From: a virus
Taxonomy: Duplodnaviria; Caudoviricetes
Direction: 5' to 3' (one strand)
IMG/VR virus record: IMGVR_UViG_2843291059_000004
Location: 1-64,000 of that record
Length of the DNA stretch: 64,000 nucleotides
In this document: one piece after another, positions 2,371-61,395 of the stretch
How the letters are laid out: every line of letters begins with the position of its first letter
Position numbering within the stretch: position 1 is the first letter of the stretch
Notes under the pieces: model-generated
What the model was told of the DNA's origin: nothing
Database searches by the model: none
What the model saw: the letters and a program-made list of their open reading frames with translations, nothing else
Program-made: the position numbers and the translations under genes

Positions 2371-2397
2371 TCAATCTACCTCATAAAAGTCTAGTTC

Positions 2398-2550
2398 TTA
2401 AATGTATTTTTCGTAATCGTAAGGAATGACACCAAATCTATTAAGATATTTTTGCGCCCGATGGTGATTCTTTTTACGAACCTTTTTAGAACGGCCATGC
2501 TCTCGAAGATGGTACATTCTATTCATCTCTTTTAGTGACATCTTTCTCAT
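2398..2550 (-). CDS. Small basic protein (50 aa, MRKMSLKEMNRMYHLREHGRSKKVRKKN...)
   Basis: Hand-translated, below the ORF-track cutoff; stop overlaps junction palindrome. Confidence 0.55.
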   Translation of the reverse strand: MRKMSLKEMNRMYHLREHGRSKKVRKKNHHRAQKYLNRFGVIPYDYEKYI

Positions 2551-2604
2551 CTATTACACCACTCTTCAATCTTTTCGCACGCTTTACAAATCACATCAAA
2601 GAAA

Positions 2605-3117
2605 TCAACTCTCGTCTGCATCAGAAACAGCTTGAAGTACGCTCTCCGCTTCTTTGCGAGCCACCATTGATTGTCCATATAAGTCAAGTCCTTTCAGCCA
2701 GTAAGATGGATATTCAGTAGTCGTTTGTAACGTGTCAATATTAGTAAACCTCTCCTTGTTTTTGAAATTGGTGTAATATCCAACAAACGGAAGTCCGATG
2801 TGATCAAGCATGAATGTATCATCATACACGTTTGGTCGCTCGTCCTGAGTTTTGATCCATCCAAGGAAATCTTCACAAAGATTTGTTCCACTTCGGATTG
2901 TTTTCTTTCGGTAGGCACATATCTCTTTATGTAAGCAATGATTACAAATACTCATAGTGTTCCTCTTTTTACAAAACTTTTCTGCCCAATCACAAAAAAT
3001 ATCCTGCCAATGGGTGATATCATAGATGAATTCTTTGGCTACAAGAATGGCCTCTCTATGAACTGCTTTCCAGTATTCTTTTTTAAATGCTAAATATTCT
3101 CTTATAAGCATCATCAT
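2605..3117 (-). CDS. Hypothetical protein (CxxC...C motif)
   Basis: ORF; alternative start at 2955 (MSICNHC) with GAGG RBS. Confidence 0.6.
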   Translation of the reverse strand: MMMLIREYLAFKKEYWKAVHREAILVAKEFIYDITHWQDIFCDWAEKFCKKRNTMSICNHCLHKEICAYRKKTIRSGTNLCEDFLGWIKTQDERPNVYDDTFMLDHIGLPFVGYYTNFKNKERFTNIDTLQTTTEYPSYWLKGLDLYGQSMVARKEAESVLQAVSDADES

Positions 3118-3134
3118 ACTCTAAAACATACATT

Positions 3135-3353
3135 TTAATCGTCAAAAACTTCTTCTCGCAGAACCGGTTTATCGTGGCTCTCTACACGACTGCCGCATTC
3201 TGGACATTGTGTTTGATAAAATAAAATCACATCCAATGACTTCGCAACCAAAACACCTTCCGAATCAGACCAAAATTCACAACCACAACCACATTTAAAA
3301 TGATATGCAAATTCTTTTGGAGTTTGCTTATGTTGAATAATTTTAATCGCCAT
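3135..3353 (-). CDS. Zn-ribbon small protein (paralog A)
   Basis: FKCGCGCEF...CPECG; GGAGG RBS. Confidence 0.7.
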   Translation of the reverse strand: MAIKIIQHKQTPKEFAYHFKCGCGCEFWSDSEGVLVAKSLDVILFYQTQCPECGSRVESHDKPVLREEVFDD

Positions 3354-3573
3354 CTGGCACCTCCACGGTAAAAATAGTTTTAGTTGCTTCTTTCCAAGAA
3401 ATAAACTCAGATCCAGCAACTTCCGCTCTACATCTATAGCACGCAATCACATTATTCTCAGGAATATCCAAATCAGGATTTTCAAAAGAAGCTACTCGAA
3501 TCTTAGTTGTACAACCGCAGTTCTTACATGGAAATACGATTACCGGATTTTTCAAACTATCAGTCTTATGCAT
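3343..3573 (-). CDS. Zn-ribbon small protein (paralog B)
   Basis: CKNCGC...CYRC. Confidence 0.65.
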   Translation of the reverse strand: MHKTDSLKNPVIVFPCKNCGCTTKIRVASFENPDLDIPENNVIACYRCRAEVAGSEFISWKEATKTIFTVEVPDGD

Positions 3574-3582
3574 ATCTGCGCC

Positions 3583-3831
3583 TCAATCCACAAAAATCTT
3601 TTCTCTTGGAACTGCTGGAAAACAAGAAACGACTTGTTCTCCACATTCTGGACATTTTGCTAGTTTTACGCCTGGTGCGTATTCTCGTATAACGGAATAA
3701 CTCGGAAATTTAATATCTTTGTCATCAGCCCAAAATATACATCCGCATTGGCACGAAAATTTTGCAGCGTATCTCTTTTTCTTTGGAGTTCCTTTGTGTT
3801 GAATAATCATAATCATAGCATTCCACCTCAA
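3583..3831 (-). CDS. Zn-ribbon small protein (paralog C)
   Basis: FSCQCGCIF...CPECG. Confidence 0.7.
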   Translation of the reverse strand: MRWNAMIMIIQHKGTPKKKRYAAKFSCQCGCIFWADDKDIKFPSYSVIREYAPGVKLAKCPECGEQVVSCFPAVPREKIFVD

Positions 3832-4064
3832 TCTGTGAACACAAACGGTGTATTGAACACAAACGGTGTATTAAAAAAGTTCGACCCAATAATCATATTT
3901 TCTTCAGACAAAGCAACCTTGATAACATCATCGTCTATATGCGTCTCATCACATTCTACTGTGTCGCAGACCTTATGATATTCGCTATCCTTCTTTGTGA
4001 ATAGCGTTCCTTCACCAAGGTTTAATGAAGTTGTTTTCTTTTCTTTTCGAATATGCGCTTTCAT
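3828..4064 (-). CDS. Hypothetical protein
   Basis: ORF with RBS; C-terminal NTPFVF x2. Confidence 0.6.
   Translation of the reverse strand: MKAHIRKEKKTTSLNLGEGTLFTKKDSEYHKVCDTVECDETHIDDDVIKVALSEENMIIGSNFFNTPFVFNTPFVFTD
3836..3871. repeat. Perfect 18-bp tandem duplication (tgaacacaaacggtgtat x2)
   Basis: Read directly; in frame within 3828..4064. Confidence 0.9.
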
Positions 4065-4077
4065 ACAATCACCTTAA

Positions 4078-4323
4078 TCAAATATCGTTAAACGTATCTA
4101 TAATCCATCCAATAAGACTATTTAGTTTTTCTACAATTTTATAAAGGAAATCCTTCAAATGAGGTTTTGGCTCAGGCATACTGCATGTAAATTCCGCTGG
4201 GCCTTCTCTTTTCGGAGAACTTGTTTGCATGACATATACTTCATCGTTGCGAATGATTCCAATTTGAGTACAGTTGTCACCATTACAGTTGCAAGTCTGA
4301 TTTATTGTGATGTTTCGTTTCAT
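4078..4323 (-). CDS. Hypothetical protein
   Basis: ORF in co-oriented run. Confidence 0.6.
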   Translation of the reverse strand: MKRNITINQTCNCNGDNCTQIGIIRNDEVYVMQTSSPKREGPAEFTCSMPEPKPHLKDFLYKIVEKLNSLIGWIIDTFNDI

Positions 4324-4358
4324 ATTATTTATTCCACCCACCCACCCATAAAACCTAT

Positions 4359-4562
4359 TTACTCTAATTGTTCAAGTGCAGATATCAAATACAAAATTAA
4401 AGTCTTTGTCTTCTCTTTTGTGAGCGTTGCAGAACTTAATTCCATATCGGGAGCATCACTATAATATGCAAGTTCGACGGCACCGTTTGAGACTATTACG
4501 CCAATATCTACATTGTAAATTCCGTCTGTCGCTTGCAGGAAACCGATTTTATTTTCTTCCAT
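4359..4562 (-). CDS. Hypothetical protein
   Basis: GGAGG RBS. Confidence 0.65.
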   Translation of the reverse strand: MEENKIGFLQATDGIYNVDIGVIVSNGAVELAYYSDAPDMELSSATLTKEKTKTLILYLISALEQLE

Positions 4563-4585
4563 AAATCCTCCGTAAAATTTACCTT

Positions 4586-4918
4586 TTAGAAGTTAATTGA
4601 ATCAAATAGGTTTTTACTTAAATCATCAATCATTGGCTCCATACACATTCTAACAAAATCATTGATTTCCTTATTCGTCATGGTAGTCTTACTAAAAGCG
4701 TTACAAGACTTACTGGGCTCTTTTTGAATGTCATTTTTCACTTTTGCCTTTTCAGTGAATCCCATATTCTCAAGACATTTGCAGTAGCCAACAATCTCAT
4801 TATAGAAGATGTGGTCGTACTCTTCTAAAAGCGTGTGCTCGTTAAACAGCTTTACTTGCCATGCAATTCCAAATGGAGCTTCTTTCTCGTAATGAGATTC
4901 AATAGCGTAATACTTCAT
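4586..4918 (-). CDS. Hypothetical protein
   Basis: AGGAG RBS; stop in junction palindrome. Confidence 0.7.
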   Translation of the reverse strand: MKYYAIESHYEKEAPFGIAWQVKLFNEHTLLEEYDHIFYNEIVGYCKCLENMGFTEKAKVKNDIQKEPSKSCNAFSKTTMTNKEINDFVRMCMEPMIDDLSKNLFDSINF

Positions 4919-4930
4919 TATGTATTCTCC

Positions 4931-5236: not shown

Positions 5237-5239
5237 AAT

Positions 5240-6246: not shown

Positions 6247-6247
6247 A

Positions 6248-6775: not shown

Positions 6776-6776
6776 C

Positions 6777-7275: not shown

Positions 7276-7303
7276 ACCTTTCCTTTCTGTTAAAAGCGGA
7301 ATT

Positions 7304-7642
7304 TTATTTGCTACAATCCTTGTTTTTCTTAATCTTGTTGAGCAGTTTTTCGTATTCGTACTTATCGTCCGGCCAGTTAAGACTACTCCAATCCAACGCT
7401 TGCCCGCATTCTGGACAAAAATTATCAAACGGAGGTTTTAGTTTTTCAAGTTTCTTGTATAGATAACTATATCCACAACTTGGACATAAGACCATTTCAC
7501 ATAATGGTGCATTTTTAACCTTTTTAGGCATTCGAATTTTAAGTGCTTCCATTCCCATGTAACGAGCACGGTGGACTGTATATGAATCTTCGTAATAGGG
7601 ATTTTTTGGGTCAAGAATCTCGATTGCTTGCTCAAGAGTCAT
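7304..7642 (-). CDS. Zn-ribbon phage protein
   Basis: CPSCG...FCPECGQALDW. Confidence 0.7.
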   Translation of the reverse strand: MTLEQAIEILDPKNPYYEDSYTVHRARYMGMEALKIRMPKKVKNAPLCEMVLCPSCGYSYLYKKLEKLKPPFDNFCPECGQALDWSSLNWPDDKYEYEKLLNKIKKNKDCSK

Positions 7643-8069: not shown

Positions 8070-8097
8070 ATTGGCACCTCCTAAAACGGCACTTTTA

Positions 8098-9078: not shown

Positions 9079-9079
9079 C

Positions 9080-9664: not shown

Positions 9665-9685
9665 CTTCTTTCAAAAATTTTCATT

Positions 9686-10135
9686 TTATAGCTCCTTTTT
9701 GAATACGAACGTAATCTCATCATCGTACTCGTTTTCCTCGATGGACTTCGTATACCCATCCAAATCGAACATGTTTTTGAAATATTCCGAAATTCGATTG
9801 TCGTACTTATAACAATAGTATTTGTCAAAAATGCCACAATACCATTTCCAACTGAACCTCCAAAAGTATTTATCTACTGTAAAATAAAGACTGTTATCGG
9901 ATGTGTTTACGTGAAGAATTTTTGGAAGTGCATGGTTTATAATTTTTTCTGTTCGCGTAAAACTCCATTTGGTTAGTTGATTTCTAACCATTTTATACCA
10001 AGCTACGATATACATCAAAGGAACAAAAATTAGGTGCTTAGTATAATAATCTCGATACCGATATCCTTTCGGCTTCTTCTTTGGCTTGTTCTTTTCCTTC
10101 TTTGCCTTCTGAATCATTTTGTCGAATTTATTCAT
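9686..10135 (-). CDS. Hypothetical protein, paralog of 10132..10611
   Basis: Shared KWS..RT..I...A.PK...V.T.DNS motif. Confidence 0.75.
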   Translation of the reverse strand: MNKFDKMIQKAKKEKNKPKKKPKGYRYRDYYTKHLIFVPLMYIVAWYKMVRNQLTKWSFTRTEKIINHALPKILHVNTSDNSLYFTVDKYFWRFSWKWYCGIFDKYYCYKYDNRISEYFKNMFDLDGYTKSIEENEYDDEITFVFKKEL

Positions 10136-14151: not shown

Positions 14152-14706
14152 TTAAAACTTGACATCATCGGCATAGACTTTAGAGTTCAGCATCGAATGG
14201 TCAACCTTATTAACTCCTTTGTTATTTGGAGACATAGTATCATTATGAGCGCTCGGAACCACAGCAGTTTCAATACTGCACGTCGGCTCTGCCAGTTTTT
14301 CTTTAAATGAATCATCAGGACGATAAACCAAATCATGGCAGACACCGCCGAGATTTGGATCATAAAAATAATCGTTAATGTCCTTCTTTGGCATCGTAGT
14401 CAGCTTATCAGCGACCTCACTAGGAACTTTCTTTAGCGTATCTACGACACTTTCAGCAACCTTCTGCTGTTCCTCTAAAAGCCGGATTTTATAGTCCAAA
14501 TACCAACGTGCCTTCGTCAAATCTTGAAGCTGAGAATTGCCATCTTTGTGTCCTGCCCGGCTCAGATATTTACCAACATTCCAAAGATAAGCATCTTTAT
14601 CCAGCTGCCACTCTCGCAGCACTTTGATGGCCTCATAGGGATTGTCTGCACCGCCGTAATGGGACGGGTGCTCGACGTTCTTCTTAATTTCGTCAAGTGT
14701 TTCCAT
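14152..14706 (-). CDS. DUF3310-family protein (T7 gp1.7 nucleotide kinase-like)
   Basis: VEHPSHY, NVGKYLSRAGHK, QDLTKARWYLD. Confidence 0.8.
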   Translation of the reverse strand: METLDEIKKNVEHPSHYGGADNPYEAIKVLREWQLDKDAYLWNVGKYLSRAGHKDGNSQLQDLTKARWYLDYKIRLLEEQQKVAESVVDTLKKVPSEVADKLTTMPKKDINDYFYDPNLGGVCHDLVYRPDDSFKEKLAEPTCSIETAVVPSAHNDTMSPNNKGVNKVDHSMLNSKVYADDVKF

Positions 14707-16828: not shown

Positions 16829-17044
16829 TTATTCCTCCGGCATAGAATACGCCTTGGCATTCATTCGATGGCAGTCAAAAATATTTCCGATAATCTCGTA
16901 GCATCTTGACGCAGTATTATAGCTACCAAGAACAATTCCGCGTTCACCCATACCTTGCCTTGCGTAAACATTAAGGTTTGCGGCATCAATGATTGCCATG
17001 CGGTCAAGATTTATAATTTCTCCGCCTTGCGTTAAAAGTAGCAT
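16829..17044 (-). CDS. Hypothetical protein
   Basis: GAGG RBS before MLLLTQGG. Confidence 0.6.
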   Translation of the reverse strand: MLLLTQGGEIINLDRMAIIDAANLNVYARQGMGERGIVLGSYNTASRCYEIIGNIFDCHRMNAKAYSMPEE

Positions 17045-17054
17045 TTTAAATACC

Positions 17055-18730: not shown

Positions 18731-18798
18731 TCGTATCCTGTATTATATAGCTAAAGAGAGAATTTTAAGCCTCCGAGATAGAGACTTTTTATAGCTAT

Positions 18799-18827: not shown

Positions 18828-21154
18828 TGCTTTTCTGAAAATTCTTTCCGTAAAAATTCCTTCAGGAACGTCCGCTTATATGGAACTCTCGAAGTCTTTA
18901 CAGCCCGATCAAGAGCGTGAGTTTCAGCGCAAATCACACAATACTTCTTGGCACGAGTAATGGCCGTATAGAGCCATTCTCTCGTCAACATCAAGTATGC
19001 AGAGTTGTCCATGCCGACAATCACATACGGAGCTTCGCTGCCCTGCAGTTTATGACAACTCAAAGCATAAGCGAGTTCAAGCGTTGCCCAGATGTTGTTC
19101 CCACCAAAATAATGAGGGATGAAGATTGTGCCCCACTGGTCAAAGTCAACCAGAATGAAACTGCCTTCAATCTTTCGAATTATGCCACGGTTGCCGTTAA
19201 ACACCGGACACTTCTCTTCTTTTTTCTTTGTCTTGAGATTGTATGTATGAAGTTCATAGTTATTCTTGTTGATAATGACCTGATCGCCCTCACGCAGAGT
19301 GTACACTCTGTCCTTGCCATCACCATAGATAGAAATCTTCGCTTCGGTCTGACCACGACTCGGATTCACAATTTCCTGAATGGCATTATTGACCTCGTAG
19401 GTGCAGATGCTGCCACGGAGCTTCTGTGGAAGTACGATTTGAATCTTTGCACTATCGTTCCCTACCTTATTATATAAGGTACGATACTGATTGATGATAT
19501 GGCTAAATGACTCGCCTGCATCCTTATAGATATCAAGCTCCAAATCACGCAGCTCGCCACGAATCTCATTACCAGCCCAACCGTAAGGAACCAACTGCGT
19601 GGCATTACGAACCTTGATGCTCTCTGTGATAATCGCTGACTTAGCAGCCTGACGGTGAATCTTCGTCAAGCGAGCAACCGGAACAACCTTGGAGGCAAGC
19701 ATATCCTTGAAGATGTTGCACATACCAATACTCTCAAGCTGGCCGTCATCACCAATCATGATAAATCGCTTACCATTTTCGATTGCTTGAATCAAATCGT
19801 AAAATAATTTAGCGCCAACCATAGAGGTTTCATCCAGAATGATGATATCCTCCTCTAAAGGATTGTTTTTGTTATGGGCAAAACCACCATTCTCAATGTC
19901 GTAACCAAGGAGGCGGTGAATTGTCTTGCCGTCCTGACCAGTAATCTCCTGCATACGAGCAGCAGCACGACCAGAGAGTGCAGTCTGGGCAAACGACTTA
20001 CCACGAAGAACCTTTAGGACACCAGCGACAACGGTACTTTTACCGGTTCCTCCGTAGCCTGTCAAGATACAGACATTACTAGAGCATACCTTTTTAATAG
20101 CATCTCTCTGCTCCTCGGTGTACTCGATGCCAAGAGCATGTTCTGCTTCGTCGATTGCAGCGTCCATGTTTCGACCAATCGGCTCGACAGGTGCATCCGC
20201 CAGACGCTTAATTTCCTTTGCAATCTTATTTTCCAGATTCCACACTCTTGTCAAAGCAAATTCCTGACGATCATCACTCCACCAAAGCGTTTCGCGGACA
20301 TCGTGCAGATGGAAAAGTGCTCTCTTGATAACCTCTTGGTCACCCTCATCCAAACCAAGTTCCTTAATGCAACTATTGATTGTCTGGTTTGCCGGGATGA
20401 TAGAATTGCCTTCTTCGGCACGGTCGGCAAGAAAATGCATGACGTAAGCTTCGATTCGGAACTGAGAGTTTGGCTTCAGTCCCATATTCAAAGCAAGAGC
20501 GTCAGCTTTCTTCCAGCCAATACCATATACATCGTCAATCAAAACATAAGGGTTCTCTTCAATCTTTCTTACCAGAGTGTCTGCGCCATGATATTGATGA
20601 ACAAGTTTTCCGATAGCACTGGGAGTCAAACCATATTCAATCAGCTTCGTGTATGCTTCGCTGTTATCAATATTATTTTCAAAGGCATCGATAATTTTCT
20701 GTGCTCGACCTTCTGTGATGCCACTAACAGTGCAAAGAGACTTGATATCACCGTTCTTGATGATCTCATACGGATTATCAAATGCTTCGTAAAGCATCTC
20801 AAACTGATGTTCTGTCAAGATAAAATTGAGAAAGCTTTTCTGTTCTTCTGGGTCAGTAATCTCTTGGAACTCGTTCATATAGACGATTTTATACTGGTCC
20901 CCAAACTTTTCATGGTGAACATACTCACCACAGAACGAATAAGTCTTATCCATATCAAGGCTAGGAACGTTGCCTTTCAGTCGGAGGTCACCATATCGAC
21001 TCATAATAGGGTTCCCCTGCTTAATTTTTACCACCTCGGCAGAGAAAGTGGCGAAGCCGCCGGGCTCAACCTCCTTCCCATCTTTCGGATAAAAGACTCG
21101 TTTTATCCTGATGTAACAACGGATCATATTTTCATTAAATTTCTTATCTGCCAC
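18824..21154 (-). CDS. recD2: RecD2-like SF1B helicase
   Basis: GYGGTGKS, ILDETSMV, IGDDGQLESIG, IHRQ, FNGNRG, AYALSCHKLQGSE, LYTAITRAK. Confidence 0.93.
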   Translation of the reverse strand: MADKKFNENMIRCYIRIKRVFYPKDGKEVEPGGFATFSAEVVKIKQGNPIMSRYGDLRLKGNVPSLDMDKTYSFCGEYVHHEKFGDQYKIVYMNEFQEITDPEEQKSFLNFILTEHQFEMLYEAFDNPYEIIKNGDIKSLCTVSGITEGRAQKIIDAFENNIDNSEAYTKLIEYGLTPSAIGKLVHQYHGADTLVRKIEENPYVLIDDVYGIGWKKADALALNMGLKPNSQFRIEAYVMHFLADRAEEGNSIIPANQTINSCIKELGLDEGDQEVIKRALFHLHDVRETLWWSDDRQEFALTRVWNLENKIAKEIKRLADAPVEPIGRNMDAAIDEAEHALGIEYTEEQRDAIKKVCSSNVCILTGYGGTGKSTVVAGVLKVLRGKSFAQTALSGRAAARMQEITGQDGKTIHRLLGYDIENGGFAHNKNNPLEEDIIILDETSMVGAKLFYDLIQAIENGKRFIMIGDDGQLESIGMCNIFKDMLASKVVPVARLTKIHRQAAKSAIITESIKVRNATQLVPYGWAGNEIRGELRDLELDIYKDAGESFSHIINQYRTLYNKVGNDSAKIQIVLPQKLRGSICTYEVNNAIQEIVNPSRGQTEAKISIYGDGKDRVYTLREGDQVIINKNNYELHTYNLKTKKKEEKCPVFNGNRGIIRKIEGSFILVDFDQWGTIFIPHYFGGNNIWATLELAYALSCHKLQGSEAPYVIVGMDNSAYLMLTREWLYTAITRAKKYCVICAETHALDRAVKTSRVPYKRTFLKEFLRKEFSEKH

Positions 21155-29500: not shown

Positions 29501-31024
29501 TTACTTTCTGGTGCAGACACCGACCTCTTTCCAGACATTCTGGTTCAAATTCACTTCAAACATGATTTTCTTCTTTTCGCCAAAACGGTTCTTGTCGATG
29601 TTTCCAATGTAATACCGCTTATCTGGATTCAGCCGATGGGCACAGTCACCGCCCCACTCAGGGTCATGAGAAATGTATTGATACTTCACAAACTTATCTT
29701 TTGGAATCTCCTTGAATAGAACCATCGTCCAAGCAACATGCTTAATCATTTTTGACTCAGCAATGTTGTTTGAATTCAGCTCATCAGGAAGATACTCATG
29801 GGCATTTTCAGCCAACTGGATGCTACCGTAGATAAAGATCTTCAGATTTTTCGCAATCTCTTCAAGCTCGGTGGCCGTGACCTTGAACGCTGCCCATTCA
29901 CCAATAGATGCAATGTCGTTCTTTAGAGTATCGTAGAACACATACTTAACTCCCTGAGTGAGAGCTGCTTTCTGAATTTCAAATCGCAGGGACTTATCAC
30001 TGTAATCGGCAGAGACATCCTTTGCGATAATCAAACCCTGTGATTCATTCTCGATCCACTGGCAAACATCGAGAACATTGCGATACTCTTCGCTCTCCTC
30101 GTAGACACGAGCAGTGAACTCATCAATGCTTTCTATGTACTCTCCATCCTCATTTTGTTTTCGGAAGATGAAGTTCCCGTTTACATCACGGTACATTCCA
30201 AGTGTGATTTCTCGTTCATCCTTATGAAAACGATGGCCATGCAGCTCTTGAAACTCAGGATTATTGATAGCAGTGACCAGTAAGCAGTACCGGACGGATT
30301 CAAGATCCATCTCGTTTAGCAGCAGAAGTGCCTTTTGCTTCTGAACCAATGTGACGTATGCAACAATCGCCATCATGTATCTAGTCTTGCCAGCGTTAGA
30401 TGGCATACCATTGAACATCACAGTGCCCAGCTTCAATCCTCGGAACAAATCATTCATGATAGGATACTGGAACGGCAAGCCCATATCAGGAACACTCAGA
30501 CGTTCATTAACCATTGGCAGCAGACCATTATTTAAGATCTCAGCATCATCGTTTGTGATGATAACCGTATTGATCTTGTCGGCCTTGCCACGAATCAATT
30601 TGTAAATGTCCTGAGCACCAAACATTTCAAACTGTCGATGCTTCAAAATTCCTTCAATGTTAAATCCGTTTCTCTGATATTCACGAAGTAGCGAATATTT
30701 TTTCAGGATATTGAAGTATCCCTTGATGTCATCGTCATTTGCAAGGCTCATGTAGTATTCAATGGTTGACCAGCCCTTCAGCCGCTTGTATTGGGACAAT
30801 CTGGACTCATCTTCAGCCATAAACGTTAAAACAGATGTTTTATTGAATTCTTGAGTCCGAGTTTCGTAAATAATTAACGCTGCATCGTAGAAAAATTTTG
30901 TTGCTTCATCGGCAAAATCGTACTTGCTCTTGACATAATGCCCATACTCGACCAAATAGTCAGGATGCTTGTAAATTGCGCCGACAAATAGAATTTCGTT
31001 CGGGATATTTGAAATGAGTTCCAC
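29501..31024 (-). CDS. DnaB-like replicative helicase (YorI-like)
   Basis: GMPSNAGKT Walker A, NEM, YVFYD, IQL, DKNRFG. Confidence 0.88.
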   Translation of the reverse strand: MELISNIPNEILFVGAIYKHPDYLVEYGHYVKSKYDFADEATKFFYDAALIIYETRTQEFNKTSVLTFMAEDESRLSQYKRLKGWSTIEYYMSLANDDDIKGYFNILKKYSLLREYQRNGFNIEGILKHRQFEMFGAQDIYKLIRGKADKINTVIITNDDAEILNNGLLPMVNERLSVPDMGLPFQYPIMNDLFRGLKLGTVMFNGMPSNAGKTRYMMAIVAYVTLVQKQKALLLLNEMDLESVRYCLLVTAINNPEFQELHGHRFHKDEREITLGMYRDVNGNFIFRKQNEDGEYIESIDEFTARVYEESEEYRNVLDVCQWIENESQGLIIAKDVSADYSDKSLRFEIQKAALTQGVKYVFYDTLKNDIASIGEWAAFKVTATELEEIAKNLKIFIYGSIQLAENAHEYLPDELNSNNIAESKMIKHVAWTMVLFKEIPKDKFVKYQYISHDPEWGGDCAHRLNPDKRYYIGNIDKNRFGEKKKIMFEVNLNQNVWKEVGVCTRK

Positions 31025-37041: not shown

Positions 37042-37183
37042 TTCCCATTCCTCCTTTTAGTATCCTGTATTATATAGCTAAAACTTTAAAAATGAGCGAA
37101 AAATAATAGACGTATCAACGCCATATTATTCATTCGCTTATAAAACAAAATTTCTAGCGGATTTTATGTATACCCTATCGGGC

Positions 37184-40481: not shown

Positions 40482-41408
40482 TTAATTTTTGTGGAAGTAT
40501 TCGATCCAGCCCTTGTATCCTTGCCGGAAACTAATGTATGCAACCTTGCTGCACTTTCTTCCGATAATGTCCGCAAGAGGATCTTTACCATTTCCGAAAC
40601 TAAGTTCTGTAAGATTAAATTCTGGATGAGTTTTGCAGTAGTTATAAACCTTTACATACTCGCCGTTTCTGGTCAGATGTCTTCGGTCTAAAGCCTTTGA
40701 ATGATATCTTCTTTCGAGAATATCATTCAAGCGCGTGAAATAACTATGAATCGTATTCGTAGACATTCTTGAATCACTGTCTGCACCAGTTCTATCCTCT
40801 GTTTTGCGAAGAATGTAATCACCATTTATGACATAAAACGTTCTGTATCCTCCCATATTGGGGGCATCATATTGTTTCATTTCATAACACTGCTTGATGA
40901 TATTCATCAGTCTCGCGTCAACACTGGTCTTATTCAAAACAGTACATGATTCAAAGTCAACATCGTTAATCGTCAGATTGGAAACTTCTTCAGAAGTAAG
41001 GCCAATCCAGTACAGCACGGCAATCACATTCATACGAATCTGATATGGCTCTTCATACTTGTCCAAGAAATCAACAAACTCATCAACTGACGCAAAATAC
41101 TTGTCCTCGTACATATTGTCTGAACTCACATCGCTCTCCGAGAATTCAGCTAAGTCATACATACTCGCTCGATCCTCACTTTTGATGTACCCTGTAATTA
41201 TCGACTTTACATTTCTGAACGACCGACTTGAGTTCACCCAATTGTATTTAGCAAACATCTTTACAAAATCATCTTTTGTGAAGTCAAACAACTCATACCC
41301 ACGCTCGGCCTCGTAATCCATAACATGGTTAAGCGTCGATATAACAAACTCACCGCTTCTATCAGAATACTTTTCGGCAAAAGCTTTGATTTTTTCTTCA
41401 GTAAGCAT
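40482..41408 (-). CDS. Tyrosine-recombinase-fold protein, probably inactive; MrpR/YopR-like master repressor
   Basis: Box I VLYWIGLTSEEVSNLTINDVDF with Thr at the catalytic Arg position; helical N-terminal domain; SPbeta-like context. Confidence 0.7.
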   Translation of the reverse strand: MLTEEKIKAFAEKYSDRSGEFVISTLNHVMDYEAERGYELFDFTKDDFVKMFAKYNWVNSSRSFRNVKSIITGYIKSEDRASMYDLAEFSESDVSSDNMYEDKYFASVDEFVDFLDKYEEPYQIRMNVIAVLYWIGLTSEEVSNLTINDVDFESCTVLNKTSVDARLMNIIKQCYEMKQYDAPNMGGYRTFYVINGDYILRKTEDRTGADSDSRMSTNTIHSYFTRLNDILERRYHSKALDRRHLTRNGEYVKVYNYCKTHPEFNLTELSFGNGKDPLADIIGRKCSKVAYISFRQGYKGWIEYFHKN

Positions 41409-41459: not shown

Positions 41460-41885
41460 TCAAGCAAATGCGGCAAAATTCTGAAATTCCATAGTATGTT
41501 GTACGCCGCTCAGAAATGCTGCGAGCAAAAATGGTTCATCTTTGCATCTTGCCATTGCAATCATATTCATCTGACGCTCCGACAAAACACCAAGTTTCTT
41601 GATGAACTGTCCTTTGTTAAGTGTATCAGTCTCTTCGCAGAGAACGATACTATCAACCTCTAGGAACTCACAGTCTTCCTTTGAAAGTAGAACATGAACC
41701 GGAGAACGCTTGCATGTTCTTGAAGATAACGGATTCCCCTTGATTGTTGGGCTGAAGAGGTTACGCTTGTTGTTACTTGTCACAACGAACGGTCGAATGC
41801 CGCGCTGCTGATGACCTGTCGCATTAGATAGATCAACCAACCAAACCTCTCCGACCTTTGGGTCAATATTGTTATCCATAGTCAT
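41460..41885 (-). CDS. mazF: MazF/PemK-family endoribonuclease (orphan)
   Basis: GEVWLVDL...GHQQRGIRPFVVTSN, PLSS, HV.L, DSIVLCE, KKLG.L. Confidence 0.85.
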   Translation of the reverse strand: MTMDNNIDPKVGEVWLVDLSNATGHQQRGIRPFVVTSNNKRNLFSPTIKGNPLSSRTCKRSPVHVLLSKEDCEFLEVDSIVLCEETDTLNKGQFIKKLGVLSERQMNMIAMARCKDEPFLLAAFLSGVQHTMEFQNFAAFA

Positions 41886-43247: not shown

Positions 43248-43271
43248 AATATTACTCCTAAAATATTGGTT

Positions 43272-43583
43272 TTATAAATCATGCTCTGCAATGTATGGCC
43301 CATACAGACATCTTTTTACATCGTTGTTGAATAGCATACAAGCCACTTTCCCAAATGTTTGATATGCTGCATCTACGACTTCAAATTGAAGTGCCTCTGG
43401 AACATCTTGCAACTGCAGCAAGTTAAGCGTTCTGCTGTACACTCCGTCGTTTTTATCTTTCTTGAGACATATAACATCAAACATATCATCACAAAGCGCA
43501 AGAAGTTCAGTAGGGCCGAGATTGTTGTTAATGTATCGTCGAGCAGATTCTCGTTTGGAATCTGGAATCACTATAAATTTCAT
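43272..43583 (-). CDS. Hypothetical cassette-like gene
   Basis: Bounded by palindromes 43259 and 43598. Confidence 0.7.
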   Translation of the reverse strand: MKFIVIPDSKRESARRYINNNLGPTELLALCDDMFDVICLKKDKNDGVYSRTLNLLQLQDVPEALQFEVVDAAYQTFGKVACMLFNNDVKRCLYGPYIAEHDL

Positions 43584-43616
43584 AAGACTGCCTCCTATAA
43601 AAGATTAGTTTTATCG

Positions 43617-47319: not shown

Positions 47320-47348
47320 ATAATCACGCTCCTAAAATCACTCTTTTA

Positions 47349-47741: not shown

Positions 47742-47764
47742 AACAACCTCCTAAAATATTACTT

Positions 47765-48439
47765 TTAAGCATCTTTCTTTATTAGCGGACGTCTATGCGT
47801 CGCATTTTTCAGCCAATCACCATCGCTGGGCATCTCCCTACTCACTCTAAGATTACGACCGCCACCTATCGGACACACTCGACGGTAATCATCAACAGTC
47901 TTGCAGCCAAGAGATTCGGCTTCATCCAGTGCCTTTCGCACATAAGCCCATGTGCTACCGCCTAGATCAGAGCACTTTCCAATCACAGCAAGTACAAGTT
48001 CGTCACCCATGCGCTCAACATATTCTGCCAAAGCTTTCTGCCCAGTAGCACCGAGCTTCCCGATATTCTCTCGAAATACATCCTCGATCGGTTTCGTCGT
48101 TGTCGTCTCATCACAAGACGAAGACGATATCTTATCTTTTTCTTTCTCTTTTTCTTTTTCTAGCTTTGTTTTGCTTGCGTTTGCTTCGTTTTGCTTACGC
48201 TTGCTTTCACCGCCAGCTTTTCCAGAAATGCGCTTACCTTCGATGTATTCGGCATCTTTAATCAAATCTCTCTTGATAGCAGGCCACACGTACCGCTCAT
48301 TTCCGATGAGTTCAGGTTCCGTTCCAGACGATTTATATTTCATCATCGCCAGTACCAGACGCCCCACCTCAGCAGCACTAAGGGGTTCAAAGTAGCTCTC
48401 GTAAGTATCCCAGATTTTAATATAAGTATCAGCCATCAT
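47765..48439 (-). CDS. DUF6291 + DnaD-domain replication initiator-like protein
   Basis: EPLSAAEVGRLVLAMMKY N-domain, GKAGG, EKEKEKEK linker, FRENIG...WAYVRKAL DnaD-like domain. Confidence 0.78.
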   Translation of the reverse strand: MMADTYIKIWDTYESYFEPLSAAEVGRLVLAMMKYKSSGTEPELIGNERYVWPAIKRDLIKDAEYIEGKRISGKAGGESKRKQNEANASKTKLEKEKEKEKDKISSSSCDETTTTKPIEDVFRENIGKLGATGQKALAEYVERMGDELVLAVIGKCSDLGGSTWAYVRKALDEAESLGCKTVDDYRRVCPIGGGRNLRVSREMPSDGDWLKNATHRRPLIKKDA

Positions 48440-48444
48440 ACACC

Positions 48445-49323
48445 TCACATTGCTACAATTGAACAATGACAATCAACGCCATAGTCGATGTTAGAATAAT
48501 ATTCTCTATCAACGTCTGCATTTAATCCAATGTAGTGAAGCGTAATAGCCTGATTACTGTGATTCAGGCTATGTTGCAACCACGCAAGTGCCATCTGGTC
48601 ATCTTTATGATTCATCATGAATTGATAACCAAAAGTCTTTCGACAACTATGCGTCCCAAGTTTATAAGAAAGCCCTAAGTCTTTTTGAGCTTTTCTCATA
48701 ATCTGTCCAAACGTATCAACATCAATCGGGTCACCTTTCTTCTTTGGATCAGCTTCATATTTTACAACTTTCACTGCATTTGATTTTCCCCCTCCAACTT
48801 TCCAAGAAGAAATACCCCCATTCGTTCTTAATGAATTTTTGCTACTTCCTTTCTGAGATGGGAAAAGCCACGAATGATACGACGGCCTCGTTAGCCGAAT
48901 ATATTCAGCTATAATCTGCATTGTGTTCTGCCCAATTACAACATCGCGATATTTTCCTGTCTTTTTCTCCTTAAAGCGAACATTGACTGTTTCATTAACA
49001 ACAAGTTTTCCATCAACCAGGTGCGATACATCTTCAACTCTAAATCGAAGAAGGTCACTCGCACGAAATCCTGTGGCAATACCAAGATTAAACAAGCACC
49101 AATCTCTATACTTCTTTTTATTATAGAAATATTCAGAAATAGCCTGAATATCTTTTACGTCACGAATCGGTTCAACTTCACCATTTCGTGCCACAGAATA
49201 TCGAGTGATGTTGTAATTTTTTCCTTTAGAATATTGAGTTGTTTCTTGATTAACATCTTCATCTAAATATTCGTCAATACTTATAAAATCCGATTCATAC
49301 TCTTCCTGTGCTAATGCTCCCAT
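48445..49323 (-). CDS. Tyrosine recombinase (catalytic-domain type, intact)
   Basis: VEPIRD, GIATGFRASDLL (R), EKKTGK (K), LFPS, THSCRKTFG (HxxR), LNHS...TLHYIG (H,Y). Confidence 0.92.
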   Translation of the reverse strand: MGALAQEEYESDFISIDEYLDEDVNQETTQYSKGKNYNITRYSVARNGEVEPIRDVKDIQAISEYFYNKKKYRDWCLFNLGIATGFRASDLLRFRVEDVSHLVDGKLVVNETVNVRFKEKKTGKYRDVVIGQNTMQIIAEYIRLTRPSYHSWLFPSQKGSSKNSLRTNGGISSWKVGGGKSNAVKVVKYEADPKKKGDPIDVDTFGQIMRKAQKDLGLSYKLGTHSCRKTFGYQFMMNHKDDQMALAWLQHSLNHSNQAITLHYIGLNADVDREYYSNIDYGVDCHCSIVAM

Positions 49324-52020: not shown

Positions 52021-52050
52021 ATTGATTTGCCTCCTAGAAGAACTGTTTTA

Positions 52051-52976: not shown

Positions 52977-52995
52977 TTTTAAAACCTCGATTCTA

Positions 52996-54002: not shown

Positions 54003-54017
54003 AATAAAACTCTCCTT

Positions 54018-54254
54018 TTACATTAACTTACCAGAAACATCAAATGCTTTCCATTTGAAACTGAATTTATCTGTCCAAACTTGTGCCTCAAATTCATTGT
54101 CATCATAATCAGTTTGGACGTCAGGAAAATCAGAATACATTGCATAACATTCTTCTGAATCATCCATAATGTATTTTATTGCTTCCGTTTTGGTTTTGAA
54201 AAATTCAGGCTCAAAAATCTCACCTTCGGAACCACATTCAATAACACACCACAT
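54018..54254 (-). CDS. Acidic hypothetical protein
   Basis: AAAGGA RBS. Confidence 0.65.
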   Translation of the reverse strand: MWCVIECGSEGEIFEPEFFKTKTEAIKYIMDDSEECYAMYSDFPDVQTDYDDNEFEAQVWTDKFSFKWKAFDVSGKLM

Positions 54255-55143: not shown

Positions 55144-55171
55144 AATATTTCCTCCTAAAATTCAACATTTA

Positions 55172-56071: not shown

Positions 56072-56090
56072 ATCTAAAATCTCCCTTTTA

Positions 56091-56548: not shown

Positions 56549-56551
56549 GAT

Positions 56552-56818: not shown

Positions 56819-56830
56819 TCTCCTTTACTC

Positions 56831-57079
56831 TTACTCTGCAATCATCATAGCGAGAACTGGTTCACCGGAATCTTTCAGCTGAAGTTCCAGAATGTCGCCG
56901 TCATCCACGACCTCACATTTGTTCAGATAATCCTGAAGGAAGAACATCTGACATTCTTGCCAGAAGATTTCTTTCGGATCTTCATTCTCTCCTACGAACA
57001 CATTCTTGTGATGGAAAGATTCATTCCAAACCCAGCCATCACCATCGTGCAGTGCATGAACTTCTCTTAAATCCCACAT
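56831..57079 (-). CDS. Hypothetical protein (MWDL start)
   Basis: GGAGG RBS. Confidence 0.7.
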   Translation of the reverse strand: MWDLREVHALHDGDGWVWNESFHHKNVFVGENEDPKEIFWQECQMFFLQDYLNKCEVVDDGDILELQLKDSGEPVLAMMIAE

Positions 57080-57081
57080 AA

Positions 57082-57318: not shown

Positions 57319-57320
57319 AG

Positions 57321-57542
57321 TTAATCCTTCCAAAAGTTGAGTTTCTTTTTGATTGTCATCTCAATTTCGTCTTTATCACCGTCAGATAGAATCTTATTAT
57401 CGTACTCGGAATAGCAAAACATAATGCTACGGCCATTATATTTATACATAACCATTGCTGTTTTTAATTGTTTGTCACGAAAAAAGGTTGCGCACCCAAT
57501 TCTATATTTTTTAGAATATTCATTTTCAACTAAATCCCACAT
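57321..57542 (-). CDS. Hypothetical protein (MWDL start)
   Basis: GGAG RBS. Confidence 0.7.
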   Translation of the reverse strand: MWDLVENEYSKKYRIGCATFFRDKQLKTAMVMYKYNGRSIMFCYSEYDNKILSDGDKDEIEMTIKKKLNFWKD

Positions 57543-57546
57543 TTTA

Positions 57547-57825: not shown

Positions 57826-58051
57826 CCATTCCTTTATAGCCCATCATATGTAAACCTTTATGCTTCTTACGACGCATATCATAATAGATTGCTACCGTAT
57901 TTTTCGGCATATTGTTTCTGAAATACTTTTCTTTGTATTCACACAGCTTCTTATACTCGTCACTTTCACGATGAGCCTTCAGCTTTTCACAATGGTCATG
58001 ACAACCAGGATAACGCTCCGGTGCCACACAGTAACGGCAAGGATCGGTCAT
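57818..58051 (-). CDS. Cys/His small phage protein
   Basis: PCRYC...R.PGCHDHCE. Confidence 0.7.
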   Translation of the reverse strand: MTDPCRYCVAPERYPGCHDHCEKLKAHRESDEYKKLCEYKEKYFRNNMPKNTVAIYYDMRRKKHKGLHMMGYKGMGV

Positions 58052-58233
58052 ATTGCAAACTCCTTTTCTCTTGTAAACTTAATCACCAACGCATTCACGT
58101 TGGCCGCTTCCATCGTTGACTGCTTTGCATCCTCGTGATTACCAGCTCTAAGGAACGAAACACTCTGATCCATCAGCTTACGCCGATAGAAAGAAAGAGC
58201 TGCGAGAACGATATTCTTTTCAGTGTTGGTCAT
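58048..58233 (-). CDS. Hypothetical protein
   Basis: Coupled ORF. Confidence 0.6.
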   Translation of the reverse strand: MTNTEKNIVLAALSFYRRKLMDQSVSFLRAGNHEDAKQSTMEAANVNALVIKFTREKEFAI

Positions 58234-58450: not shown

Positions 58451-58506
58451 GTTTATCTAACCATCCACAAACGCTATAAGTAACCATAGATTCCATTTTT
58501 ATCACC

Positions 58507-58815: not shown

Positions 58816-58829
58816 TTTTATCACCTCAA

Positions 58830-59063
58830 TCAAAACTGAACCACTTCATGTTTGGCTTTCTCCAGCATCTCTTTCTCTTGTTCTTCAAGACGTTCAACTT
58901 CACACAAAACATTACGAATACCAATGATAATAAAATCCCTATCACGCTCACGTTCTGCCCTATGTGCGGGATTGTTTTTGCAAAATCCTTCGCACAAGTT
59001 GTTTTCTCTTGCAATCAAATTATCAATCGCGCACTTCAAAACACGCTTATCTTTTTCAGTCAT
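58830..59063 (-). CDS. Hypothetical protein
   Basis: GAGGTG RBS. Confidence 0.65.
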   Translation of the reverse strand: MTEKDKRVLKCAIDNLIARENNLCEGFCKNNPAHRAERERDRDFIIIGIRNVLCEVERLEEQEKEMLEKAKHEVVQF

Positions 59064-59099
59064 ATTTGTCACCTCAATCATTGTAAAATATCTGATTTA

Positions 59100-59435
59100 T
59101 CAAAACCATGCACTAGCATCAAATACAAAATAGAAATGTTCGCCATAATCTTCAATCAAATCTTCCGTTCGGTTAAGACCACATTCTTTCGCTGATTTAA
59201 TAACAGCTCTTTTGAAGTCTCTTCTAAGAATCCAATAATCTGTTGCACCTACTGGAATATCATATCCGACAAGAACGCAAAGTTGCTTTCCTTCAAGCGG
59301 AGCTGCATCGAAATCAACTTCGGTCACATATGGAATGTTCAAAATTTTCTGCTCAAGATATTCCAATTTTTGAATTGAAACACCAAACATTTTTGCATAG
59401 CCAACAACAAATTCATTTTTTGTTCCGCGTTTCAT
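59100..59435 (-). CDS. Hypothetical cassette-like gene
   Basis: Bounded by palindromes 59084 and 59449. Confidence 0.7.
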   Translation of the reverse strand: MKRGTKNEFVVGYAKMFGVSIQKLEYLEQKILNIPYVTEVDFDAAPLEGKQLCVLVGYDIPVGATDYWILRRDFKRAVIKSAKECGLNRTEDLIEDYGEHFYFVFDASAWF

Positions 59436-59461
59436 TTTTATCACCTCATAAAAGCATGATT

Positions 59462-59677
59462 TTAGATATCAAAAGCATCATAAAGATCTTCGGGCTTATC
59501 ATTCGGCATCCATACTTTTGCATTATCATTAAGGAAGTAACCGCAACCAAAAAATCCAGCAGGAGAATCACAAAGATTCTGTTCACCATCTTTAACACCA
59601 GCTTGATAAACAACATAGATAAACTCAGCAAGCTCATGCTTATCCATTCGCTTAATGCGGTCGTACAATGTTTCCAT
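59462..59677 (-). CDS. Hypothetical protein
   Basis: AAGGAG RBS. Confidence 0.65.
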   Translation of the reverse strand: METLYDRIKRMDKHELAEFIYVVYQAGVKDGEQNLCDSPAGFFGCGYFLNDNAKVWMPNDKPEDLYDAFDI

Positions 59678-59691
59678 ATCAATCGCTCCTT

Positions 59692-60072
59692 TTAGATATC
59701 ACTCTCTTCGTTTTTAAGACGACACTGTTCTTGACACTTGTCATAATAATCAATAACTTCGTTAATCTTCTCAGGAGATTCTTCTCTATATTTCTTATAC
59801 ATCTCCACTGCCTCTTTTGCTTTACAATCGTATGCCCACCGATAAGCCTTTACAAATCTCTGCTGGCGGCGACCATAATTCTTATCCTTTTCTCTAGCTT
59901 CATATATCTTTTTAACAGTTCTTTCAGTGACCTTATCGTTATTTATCGAAACTCTATGCATTACATCAGAAAACTCAAGAAACATACTTTCAGGGACATA
60001 TCCATTGTGATCTCGCATCTGTGTCCACATCTTTCCAAGCATCTGAAAGTCCTTTTTACCGATATAAGCCAT
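59692..60072 (-). CDS. Hypothetical protein
   Basis: AAGGAG RBS. Confidence 0.7.
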   Translation of the reverse strand: MAYIGKKDFQMLGKMWTQMRDHNGYVPESMFLEFSDVMHRVSINNDKVTERTVKKIYEAREKDKNYGRRQQRFVKAYRWAYDCKAKEAVEMYKKYREESPEKINEVIDYYDKCQEQCRLKNEESDI

Positions 60073-60162
60073 ACCTAACACTCCTTTTAATATTATTGTG
60101 TTTTCACATTCTGGTAGCGGTTATGTCTGCCCTAGTACCGCTAATCACCTAGCATCTGCTAT

Positions 60163-60411
60163 TTATACTACCCAGACTTGACTTCTTATGTAGTCCTCAA
60201 TATCTGCTGGATAACCATTGCGCTGGACATACTGACACAGCATACGCTGCACATCACGGTTGTCACCATAGTCCATTGCCAACGAGATATCTTCACCGTG
60301 AGTTCCAACACCCAGGCGTTCATACTTTCTGACTTCAAGATAGAAGTCGTATGCACTGTAGTGCCTTCCGTCCCGGCGGTCGAGAATGGAATCAATAATC
60401 AAAGTTTTCAC
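60163..60411 (-). CDS. Hypothetical protein
   Basis: IIDSILDRRDG..Y; GTG start. Confidence 0.7.
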   Translation of the reverse strand: MKTLIIDSILDRRDGRHYSAYDFYLEVRKYERLGVGTHGEDISLAMDYGDNRDVQRMLCQYVQRNGYPADIEDYIRSQVWVV

Positions 60412-60414
60412 CTC

Positions 60415-60651
60415 TTAACCAAAAATATAAATTGCTGACGTTCTGGAAGTCACGGCATAATATGTTCCGGTTTTGTATCCTTTGAGTAACATTCCATCGC
60501 AACCATAAACACCAGAGGAATATCCGACCTGAGAAAGATAATCTTCTCTTTTGATAATCTTTTCATAATCCTCATTGTTTGCACGAGTAACATCTTCTGC
60601 CATTCCAAGGGCAACCATATTCTTCAGTTCTTTCCGAGTGTACTTACGCAT
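60415..60651 (-). CDS. Hypothetical protein
   Basis: VGYSSGVYGCDG; AAGGAG RBS. Confidence 0.7.
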   Translation of the reverse strand: MRKYTRKELKNMVALGMAEDVTRANNEDYEKIIKREDYLSQVGYSSGVYGCDGMLLKGYKTGTYYAVTSRTSAIYIFG

Positions 60652-61201
60652 TTTCTTTCATCTCCTTTACAGTCTCATCGTCCCAATGAAATCCACGCTT
60701 TTCATAAAGCGGAATCCAATGAGCTTCAAAAAAGTCGTAGCCACAACCATCAATGCCGAAAATGTAACCGTAATCTTCTTGCTCATAGATACGAAAACCA
60801 CAGTCTGCCATTTCCTGAAGATGATTCTCAAGCCACCAATTGTCACAGCCGTCACTGAACTGCCACATCGTGCCCCACATCGGAAGACCATCATAACGAA
60901 TGACTTCAAATTCGTCCGTACTCAGATGAATCTTCACGCTGGTGTCCTCATCTGGAACGATGGTATAAATCATTTCTCCATCGTCATTCTTGCTATAGCC
61001 AACAACCTCACCTTCGCCGTTATAATCACCACCCAAAATCGAAACGCGATCATTGATAGTTGGCGGGGTGATCTCCGTCATCTCTTCGCCGTTCTCATAC
61101 ATATTCAGCTTATTGAGCTTTTCAATAACGCTCTGAGGAATCGCATTAAATTCCTGAACCCATGCGTATGCTGCGTCTTTCTTAGTTTTATACATAGCCA
61201 T
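60644..61201 (-). CDS. Acidic conserved-type phage protein
   Basis: PMWGTMW, FGIDGCGYDFFEAHWIPLY; first gene after operator-promoter. Confidence 0.8.
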   Translation of the reverse strand: MAMYKTKKDAAYAWVQEFNAIPQSVIEKLNKLNMYENGEEMTEITPPTINDRVSILGGDYNGEGEVVGYSKNDDGEMIYTIVPDEDTSVKIHLSTDEFEVIRYDGLPMWGTMWQFSDGCDNWWLENHLQEMADCGFRIYEQEDYGYIFGIDGCGYDFFEAHWIPLYEKRGFHWDDETVKEMKENA

Positions 61202-61289
61202 AGTTGGATCTCCTTTTCTTGCGTATCCTGTATTATATAGCTGAACGGTAAAAATAAAAGTCCTCTAACGGACTGCCTTTCTTAGCTAC

Positions 61290-61318
61290 ATAATACAGGA
61301 TACTGATAGAAATGTCAA
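61290..61318 (-). promoter_or_regulatory. Sigma-A promoter overlapping 21-bp operator
   Basis: TTGACA-17bp-TATTAT. Confidence 0.8.
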
Positions 61319-61395
61319 GCACTAAAATGTAGATTTTATTAACGTCGCATTTTAGTGCGTTGATACGTTGTTTATTTGTGACTGTTTTGTGAATG

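Follow-up and report, generated by a model that had tools for sequence, protein, structure and literature searches.

TAAAA-N6-TTTTA palindromes dispersed over the early operons of an uncultivated SPβ-like phage: candidate operator-like sites

Genome layout and the repeated palindrome

The 64,000-nucleotide stretch analyzed here (hereafter the window) comes from a virus of the class Caudoviricetes (IMG/VR record IMGVR_UViG_2843291059_000004, positions 1 to 64,000) and carries many dispersed copies of a 16-bp palindrome, TAAAA-N6-TTTTA, most of them at gene junctions. The window makes up the first 64 kb of one phage contig that is 134,478 bp long and has 42% GC. Gene calling by codon usage resolved one long minus-strand arm, running from ~131 kb through the contig origin to ~67 kb, and a plus-strand arm at 67-131 kb that holds the virion genes. 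The minus-strand arm (the early arm) comprises ~140 genes, mostly small, together with the replication block. Pfam matches in the window included a DnaE-type polymerase, RecD2, RecJ, NrdD and an ATP-dependent ligase, as well as a Pnkp-RNA ligase fusion, a Bro-N protein and a Phage_integrase-family protein at 48445..49323. Comparison with phage SPβ by tblastn identified a distant SPβ-like set made up of DnaE/YorL, RecJ/YorK, YorJ, YorI, dUTPase, terminase, portal, tape measure and YonO. The IMG/VR database contains ~50 near-identical relatives of 110-137 kb (DnaE 95-99% identical) plus a more distant tier. Relatives with a DnaE 60-74% identical reside in Lachnospiraceae genomes, such as those of Roseburia and Acetatifactor, and animal-gut and manure metagenomes gave partial matches to the phage. 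No match was obtained when the replication block was compared with cultured phages by Megablast.

The window has 17 exact copies of TAAAA-N6-TTTTA, where dinucleotide shuffles predict 0.18, and copies with at most one mismatch numbered 33 against 7.0 expected. The whole 134,478-bp genome holds 23 exact copies, where fewer than one would be expected. The first-pass annotation of this DNA had located the motif correctly, but its tally of 12 exact copies (besides about 13 near ones) was too low for the exact copies. The spacing is strictly N6, with 0-1 copies at any other spacing from N0 to N14 and 0-2 copies of other arm arrangements. Only 3-4 of the 23 exact sites lie entirely in coding sequence, where 85-88% would be expected (P~1e-14). 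This confirmed the proposed enrichment at junctions relative to coding sequence, although the statement that all copies are intergenic or at gene ends holds for nearly all and not for these 3-4. The replication block (18.8-34.2 kb), which had been described as free of the motif, contains exact copies at 21090 and 30827 and has a near copy at 18752.

The coding strand at the sites is the minus strand. Their usual layout is a stop codon (a TGA flush to the arm, or the TAA of the arm itself), TAAAA-N6-TTTTA, GGAGG, ~7 nt and ATG, so that the placement between a stop codon and the next ribosome-binding site proposed earlier is right for most copies; some lie instead between tRNA genes or just 5' of a promoter -35 element. 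The arm does often supply the upstream stop, for example at 4573, 7291, 43259 and 47752. The 6-bp spacer is variable, as described before, and differs at every locus, but in several copies it doubles as the Shine-Dalgarno sequence (GGGAGA, GGAGAG, GAGGAG). Within the spacer, only its two outer bases (positions 6 and 11 of the 16-mer) are constrained, extension of the A/T tract being avoided.

Adjacency to promoters is limited to a few copies (61323, 18752 and genome position 71037), and most copies are inside operons. A sigma-70 promoter scan showed no association with the sites, most of which have neither a promoter nor a terminator. Since the Shine-Dalgarno sequence abuts the site and promoters are marked by a different 20-mer, AGCTATATAATACAGGATAC (~12 copies), the possibility that the motif is itself a promoter was also rejected. 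A second repeat, AGCTA-TATAAT-ACAGGATAC, occurs in ~12 copies, at window positions ~18664, 18733, 18798 (+), 37060, 40426, 41922 (+), 61223 and 61289 (+) and at genome positions 67656 (-), 67721 (+) and 71070 (+). Its copies precede Shine-Dalgarno sequences, form divergent pairs and mark the switch of genome arms, often with a GC hairpin between them. This repeat is probably a phage promoter or operator and possibly a functional analogue of SPBRE, a regulatory repeat of SPβ.

Mosaicism of the early arm and the recombinase-like proteins

The palindromes had been read as recombination sites that delimit mobile gene cassettes, in the manner of integrons or pdif modules. The early arm (window coordinates 1-67000) was therefore compared with those of five complete, near-identical relatives (G006-G010), for a total of six genomes. 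Each of the five relatives has 19-25 exact sites in its early arm, against 0-2 for a control. The arm proved extremely mosaic, with a breakpoint at ~75% of gene junctions while DnaE is 96-99% identical, and many homology blocks stop exactly at sites. Single small genes (e.g., 58048-58233) are kept between wholly different neighbours. Among 371 breakpoints, 69 fell within genes and the others at gene junctions, 63 of them with the motif and 239 without it. At least one breakpoint was present at 18 of the 23 motif junctions (78%) and at 79 of the 111 non-motif junctions (71-77%; Fisher p=0.61). Contigs from four independent metagenomes agreed with this result over the region 52-62 kb (7/8 motif against 16/25 non-motif junctions) and run through the sites intact. 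Breakpoints among relatives are thus unrelated to the sites. At 57055-57067 and 57531-57546, two paralogous genes both begin with ATGTGGGATTTA, and one metagenome contig shows a clean 463-nt deletion via a 12-nt repeat. The junction of this deletion is the 12-nt repeat at the 5' ends of the paralogues and not the motif.

Every site is marked by a spacer of its own, and all six genomes show these spacers in the same sequence along the arm. Across ~400 cross-genome pairs with homologous flanks the spacer was the same, the sole exceptions tracing to one orthologous site that had drifted by 2 nt. No gene was seen next to the spacer of a different site, and no cassette occurred at more than one address. 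Fixed order, one spacer per flank and equal breakpoint rates indicate that nothing moves between sites and that crossovers do not favour them. Some 16-mers are identical over their full length, including the spacer, in every one of the six genomes although the flanking genes cannot be aligned, and sites travel somewhat more often with the downstream than with the upstream gene (uD 30 versus Ud 10). Nearly every boundary in this region is a breakpoint, and the 16-mers act within it like small conserved modules. In such a region, caution is needed because a conserved junction motif will mimic a cassette boundary.

The product of 48445..49323, which had been put forward as the recombinase acting on the sites, is a protein of 292 aa. 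Its catalytic set, read by eye, is apparently complete, and the normal core-binding domain is missing. Its counterparts in the five close relatives are just 51-61% identical, while the arms of the motif are invariant. No homologue was detectable in the complete, motif-positive 217-kb relative G003, and a homologue occurs in Streptococcus phage Javan310, which has zero sites. Likewise, Phage_integrase-family (PF00589) genes are found in motif-positive and motif-negative relatives alike. The occurrence of the 292-aa protein does not follow that of the motif, and a role for it as the reader of the sites lacks support. Equal breakpoint rates, fixed spacers and order, the absence of any gene from a second site and this lack of a co-occurring recombinase together leave the reading as mobile cassettes unsupported. 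A sequence search of the PDB with the recombinase-like protein gave no match.

A second recombinase-fold protein (PHROG integrase family) is encoded at 40482-41408 (-) and 41460-41879 (-), where it adjoins a MazF-like gene. It gave a weak, sub-threshold match to the N-terminal core-binding domain of the SPβ repressor MrpR and a non-significant collinear alignment at 19%, and it has no obvious catalytic motif. We regard it as a candidate MrpR-like master repressor.

Candidate readings of the sites

The pattern of conservation points to the double-stranded DNA as the level at which the sites are read. In alignments spanning the sites, conservation was 99.3% in the arms, 96.7% in the spacers and ~91% in the flanks, and spacer substitutions were found with the arms intact. 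The arms are thus under purifying selection. Variants are tolerated mirror-symmetrically (A3>G in 8 and T14>C in 11 cases; A5>T in 5 and T12>A in 16), and transitions that would keep a G.U wobble are about as frequent as those creating an A.C mismatch (23 versus 20). No covariation of flanks or spacers within sites was detected in any of three phages, and the predicted RNA folding at the sites was no better than that of shuffles (z -1.4 to +0.8). Symmetric tolerance, the lack of covariation and the lack of a stable fold led us to reject an RNA hairpin or a cruciform. The copies between tRNA genes, 5' of a promoter -35 element and in open reading frames further suggest that the function is not tied to translation. 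Conserved arms, symmetric tolerance and the absence of covariation or fold are the signature of a dimeric protein that contacts duplex DNA at two half-sites separated by one helical turn.

We therefore give roughly even credence to a dispersed operator-like site that a putative phage dimer would occupy on early-arm DNA. The binding site of a phage regulator had been named before as the alternative to cassettes, and it is the reading that the sequence evidence favours. TAAAA-N6-TTTTA would be the core of a two-fold symmetric site for a homodimeric, most likely phage-encoded protein, with ~25-40 copies dispersed per genome, mostly in long early operons. Tight genome packing would leave such sites little room between the stop codon of one gene and the ribosome-binding site of the next. 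Together they could form a distributed operator or architectural network on the early arm, acting for instance by roadblock silencing or in the timing of transcription along operons of 20-60 kb. As a by-product, they would be conserved reference points of a hyper-mosaic region, with allelic genes being exchanged around them. We infer the protein binding, the phage origin of the protein and an effect of its binding from these patterns, and we hold roadblock silencing, timing or any other particular effect to be much less certain than the binding of a protein to this DNA.

Several points weigh against this reading. Individual sites have decayed in some genomes, so each single site must be dispensable. 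Most sites lie away from recognisable promoters, and a classical operator role is thus not obvious. The flush position at stop codons and ribosome-binding sites could hint at a role in RNA or translation; genome compaction may account for it, as an unproven cause. Phylogenetic profiling with tblastn and phmmer over three motif-positive and two motif-negative genomes yielded no plausible candidate for the binder: the only protein shared exclusively by the motif-positive genomes was a C5-methyltransferase, which was judged implausible in this role. Finally, chromatin profiling (ChAP-seq) of MrpR in SPβ reported peaks only at SPBRE (PMC10516654), which argues that the best-known SPβ regulator is not the reader.

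Known dimeric regulators offer close parallels. The operators of CRP (TGTGA-N6-TCACA) and ComK (AAAA-N5-TTTT) are bound by dimeric transcription factors, and P1 C1 and RK2 KorB act on operator networks dispersed over mobile elements. The present sites resemble the former in the distance between half-sites (one helical turn), in conserved arms that enclose a free spacer and in their symmetric tolerance of mutations, and the latter in being scattered in many copies over one mobile genome. They differ from dimeric operators in that most copies are inside operons and not over promoters. The archaeal operator of RbkR, a winged-helix regulator, is TAAAA-N6-TTTTA, with the same 5-N6-5 geometry (PMC5397151).

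A more specific form of the recombination reading must be weighed against this. The sites could be dedicated core sites of a tyrosine recombinase in which the spacer is a positional address, so that only allelic sites of co-infecting relatives recombine and order is kept (recombinase-mediated cassette exchange). Inverted arms around a 6-bp center are indeed shared with dif, pdif and other core sites of this kind, and the consensus of the SPβ copies extends to ~11-6-11 as in dif. However, the likeness seen by the first-pass annotation, real as it is, is not diagnostic, because the operators of dimeric transcription factors have the same geometry. Spacers that are unique within a genome and fixed in order are what heterospecific sites would need, the identical 16-mers between differing genes and the homology that ends at site edges would fit an exchange of this type, and the phage encodes one recombinase-fold protein with an apparently complete catalytic set and SPβ three such proteins. 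Yet breakpoints are no commoner at motif junctions, and 239 of the 371 lie at non-motif junctions, inside the supposed cassettes. Strong conservation is limited to 5 bp per arm, spacers have been co-opted as Shine-Dalgarno sequences, and some sites are in essential open reading frames. There is no inversion or relocation of modules as at dif or pdif sites, and host chromosomes are not enriched. The 292-aa protein is itself divergent among relatives with invariant arms, undetected in motif-positive G003 and present in motif-free Javan310, and PF00589 genes do not follow the motif. We consider this form of recombination unlikely. The resemblance to integrons is in the short promoterless reading frames of one orientation with a repeated palindrome after each stop. 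Integron attC sites are imperfect palindromes of 57-141 bp that recombine as folded single strands beside an intI-attI-Pc platform. The present motif differs from them in its 16-bp length and in the absence of pairing beyond the arms and of a stable fold; a platform is missing as well, and no cassette was seen at a second address.

About equally improbable, in our judgment, is an intercistronic punctuation of the polycistronic early mRNA, in which UAAAA-N6-UUUUA would be a binding or cleavage site controlling the downstream cistron through a translational repressor, an RNase or a ribosome-related signal. The position of most copies between a stop codon and a Shine-Dalgarno sequence, with the UAA of the arm often as the stop both here and in SPβ, would suit such a role, as would the tendency to travel with the downstream gene. 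On the other hand, a stem of five A-U pairs is unstable and shows no covariation, T14>C is tolerated as often as A3>G, one symmetric protein could not read two different single-strand half-sites, and some copies lie between tRNAs and 5' of a -35 element. Bipartite 5-N6-5 symmetry is also typical of the recognition sites of dimeric endonucleases and of Type I/IIB enzymes, and the palindromes could be cut or nicked by a phage nuclease, leaving recombinogenic ends at gene boundaries for recombination-dependent replication and mosaicism. The region is hyper-mosaic, and the phage genes include ones for RecJ-, RecD2-, Sak4-like (AAA_24) and ligase functions; however, breakpoints are not in excess at the sites, no nuclease was found that co-varies with them, and metagenome contigs continue unbroken through them, which makes this explanation very unlikely. 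Slightly less credible still are passive linkers with no protein partner, short identical junctions at which homologous recombination joins divergent modules (Botstein-type linkers). Recombination at microhomologies does take place here, as in one deletion that rests on a 12-nt overlap, and otherwise divergent alleles share identical sequence at the sites. This explanation does not account for arms that are invariant beside a free spacer, for the strict N6, for the mirror-symmetric tolerance or for the conservation between SPβ and gut phages without shared flanking DNA, and non-motif junctions recombine equally well. Comparable elements, the PeSLs of T4-type phages (PMC2839356, PMC4122927), are likewise repeated regulatory motifs that border small early genes in hyperplastic regions; they are kept between otherwise different neighbours, and a role in modular shuffling was proposed for them in those studies. 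PeSLs consist of an early promoter and a terminator stem-loop, whereas the present motif has no promoter at most sites, no stable stem and no breakpoint excess.

Sites in SPβ and along the window

The motif is also present in SPβ (NC_001884), with 34 exact copies against 2.4 expected, at N6 only. About 28 of these are intergenic, the TAA of the arm is the upstream stop in 10, and the next start lies 19-35 nt 3'. At the consensus level the SPβ flanks are symmetric, giving an imperfect ~28-bp palindrome, TYTRRA-TAAAA-N6-TTTTA-TYYARA. The GenBank record of SPβ annotates other palindromes and none of the TAAAA-N6-TTTTA copies, and the searchable literature contained no mention of the motif in phages (the 1999 genome paper of SPβ was outside this search, and a mention there is possible). 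The 34-copy palindrome thus appears new to the searchable literature and to the GenBank annotation.

Among other genomes, G003 shows the same junction layout, and its 28 copies at N6 compare with 2-7 for other spacings. Four other relatives, Clostridium phage Amboise (first 50 kb) and Javan310 were motif-negative. Four Lachnospiraceae host chromosomes were unenriched, with 23-55 copies per 1.6-6 Mb, below control, which disfavours the site of a host transcription factor. A scan of IMG/VR with an extended pattern returned 22 stretches, about half of them from this clade and a 170-200-kb clade, a result that is uninformative on breadth. Three spacers were shared between different clades, a number that was not significant (P=0.06) as evidence for spacers as addresses. 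The distribution is best explained by a lineage trait of some SPβ-like phages, namely SPβ, the ~130-kb clade of Lachnospiraceae phages and a ~170-217-kb clade.

SPBRE is a repeat of SPβ that in silico work first proposed as the site of a regulator, before its binding by the recombinase-fold repressor MrpR (YopR) was demonstrated (PMC10516654). Like the present motif, it recurs between genes at scattered places in a phage of the SPβ type, and the phage studied here is a distant relative of SPβ. The two are nevertheless distinct, and an identity with SPBRE/MrpR was rejected. SPBRE as derived from the upstream regions of 7 published MrpR targets (...ACAAAAAATATGTATATAA...) is unrelated to the motif; it has ~10 promoter-associated copies, whereas the motif occupies 34 other SPβ positions that are not among the reported MrpR ChAP-seq peaks and, in the phage studied here, is mostly inside operons, with few copies at promoters. 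Several SPβ copies adjoin SPBRE-containing promoters (aimR, yosX, yorE). A YonO-type single-chain RNA polymerase is encoded at genome 71115-73898 (+), as identified by tblastn to SPβ yonO and a Pfam RdRP match, and its gene lies directly 3' of the site at 71037 and of a copy of the promoter-like 20-mer. A link of the motif to YonO, as its promoter or terminator, was rejected: no SPβ site lies within ~3 kb of the YonO start, taken as ~60 kb in SPβc2 coordinates by rough mapping from PMC5467207, and YonO homologues occur in motif-negative genomes.

SPβ is a 50-year-old model of temperate phages whose lysis-lysogeny circuitry (arbitrium, MrpR/SPBRE, YonO) is actively studied. The same element in uncultivated gut phages of Lachnospiraceae, of 130-217 kb, suggests a DNA-level control or architectural layer that extends across very distant SPβ-like phages. 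Even if no recombination is involved, 25-40 operator-like sites in early operons, including those of SPβ, would be a new regulatory layer. The genetic tractability of SPβ and B. subtilis opens both the binder and the function of the sites to direct tests.

Along the window, individual sites illustrate both the layout and its conservation (spacers are given on the coding strand). The exact copy at 3122..3137 (TGTATG) lies at a gene junction and has the same spacer in G008 and G010, where the flanks differ. At 4573..4588 (GGTAAA) the Shine-Dalgarno sequence begins 1 nt 3' of the exact site, and at 7291..7306 (exact, TTCCGC) homology blocks stop in several relatives; the TAA of the arm is the upstream stop in both. 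The exact site at 8082..8097 (GTGCCG) has a TGA flush 5' and GGAGG flush 3'. One mismatch separates 9673..9688 (TGAAAA) from the motif, and the site is exact in G008 and G010. The exact copy at 14476..14491 is in an open reading frame, with its arms kept in 5/5 relatives and one spacer substitution in G006. That at 17033..17048 (exact, TGCTAC) lies 6 nt past a stop, and the gene upstream of it varies among relatives. The near copy at 18752..18767 (one mismatch) directly abuts a copy of the promoter-like 20-mer. In the replication block, the exact site at 21090..21105 lies 61 nt past the DnaE stop, at the called 5' end of a RecD2-like reading frame, and is identical in all relatives, while that at 30827..30842, also exact, is within a helicase-like reading frame, its spacer differing by 1 nt from those of the relatives with the arms intact.

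Further along, a one-mismatch copy at 37141..37156 lies just 3' of a tRNA gene. Exact sites follow at 43259..43274 (CCAATA; the TAA of the arm as the stop, the Shine-Dalgarno sequence flush 3'), 43598..43613 (CTAATC), 47333..47348 (GAGTGA; TGA flush 5', GGAGC 3') and 47752..47767 (GTAATA; the TAA of the arm as the stop, GGAGG flush 3'). Two copies with one mismatch are at 52035..52050 (T14>C), a junction site that is kept in relatives, and at 52980..52995 (A3>G, TCGAGG), which is exact in G006, G007, G009 and G010. The spacer is the Shine-Dalgarno sequence of the next gene in the exact site at 54005..54020 (GGAGAG), and it is also a Shine-Dalgarno sequence at 56075..56090 (exact, GGGAGA), present in 6/6 genomes with varying flanks, and at 63020..63035 (one mismatch, GAGGAG). 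The junction copy at 55156..55171 (one mismatch) borders a block that is 95% conserved in G006 and metagenome contigs. At 57531..57546 (one mismatch) the ATG of the next gene falls within the site, and the copy at 59084..59099 (one mismatch, CAGATA) is exact in G007 and G008. The exact site at 59449..59464 (TCATGC) is identical in 6/6 genomes, with an upstream flank that is unalignable in all pairs and a downstream flank unalignable in all but one. The exact site at 61323..61338 ends 4 nt 5' of the -35 element of the strongest sigma-70-type promoter (TTGACA-N17-TATTAT), and that at 62538..62553 (exact, GATATG) is in 6/6 genomes and mostly travels with its downstream gene.

Two further features of the genome deserve mention. 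The DnaE match spans ~4.54 kb in six relatives in place of 3.34 kb, which implies an insertion of ~1.2 kb (an intron, an intein or a homing-endonuclease gene). Genes for tRNAs lie near 37.2-37.8 kb of the window and at genome 77.9-78.6 kb, with TAAAA-N6-TTTTA sites between them. A kinase-phosphatase-RNA ligase fusion of the Pnkp/Rnl RNA-repair type (38194-40404, -) adjoins the tRNA cluster, an arrangement that suggests a counter-measure to host anticodon nucleases.

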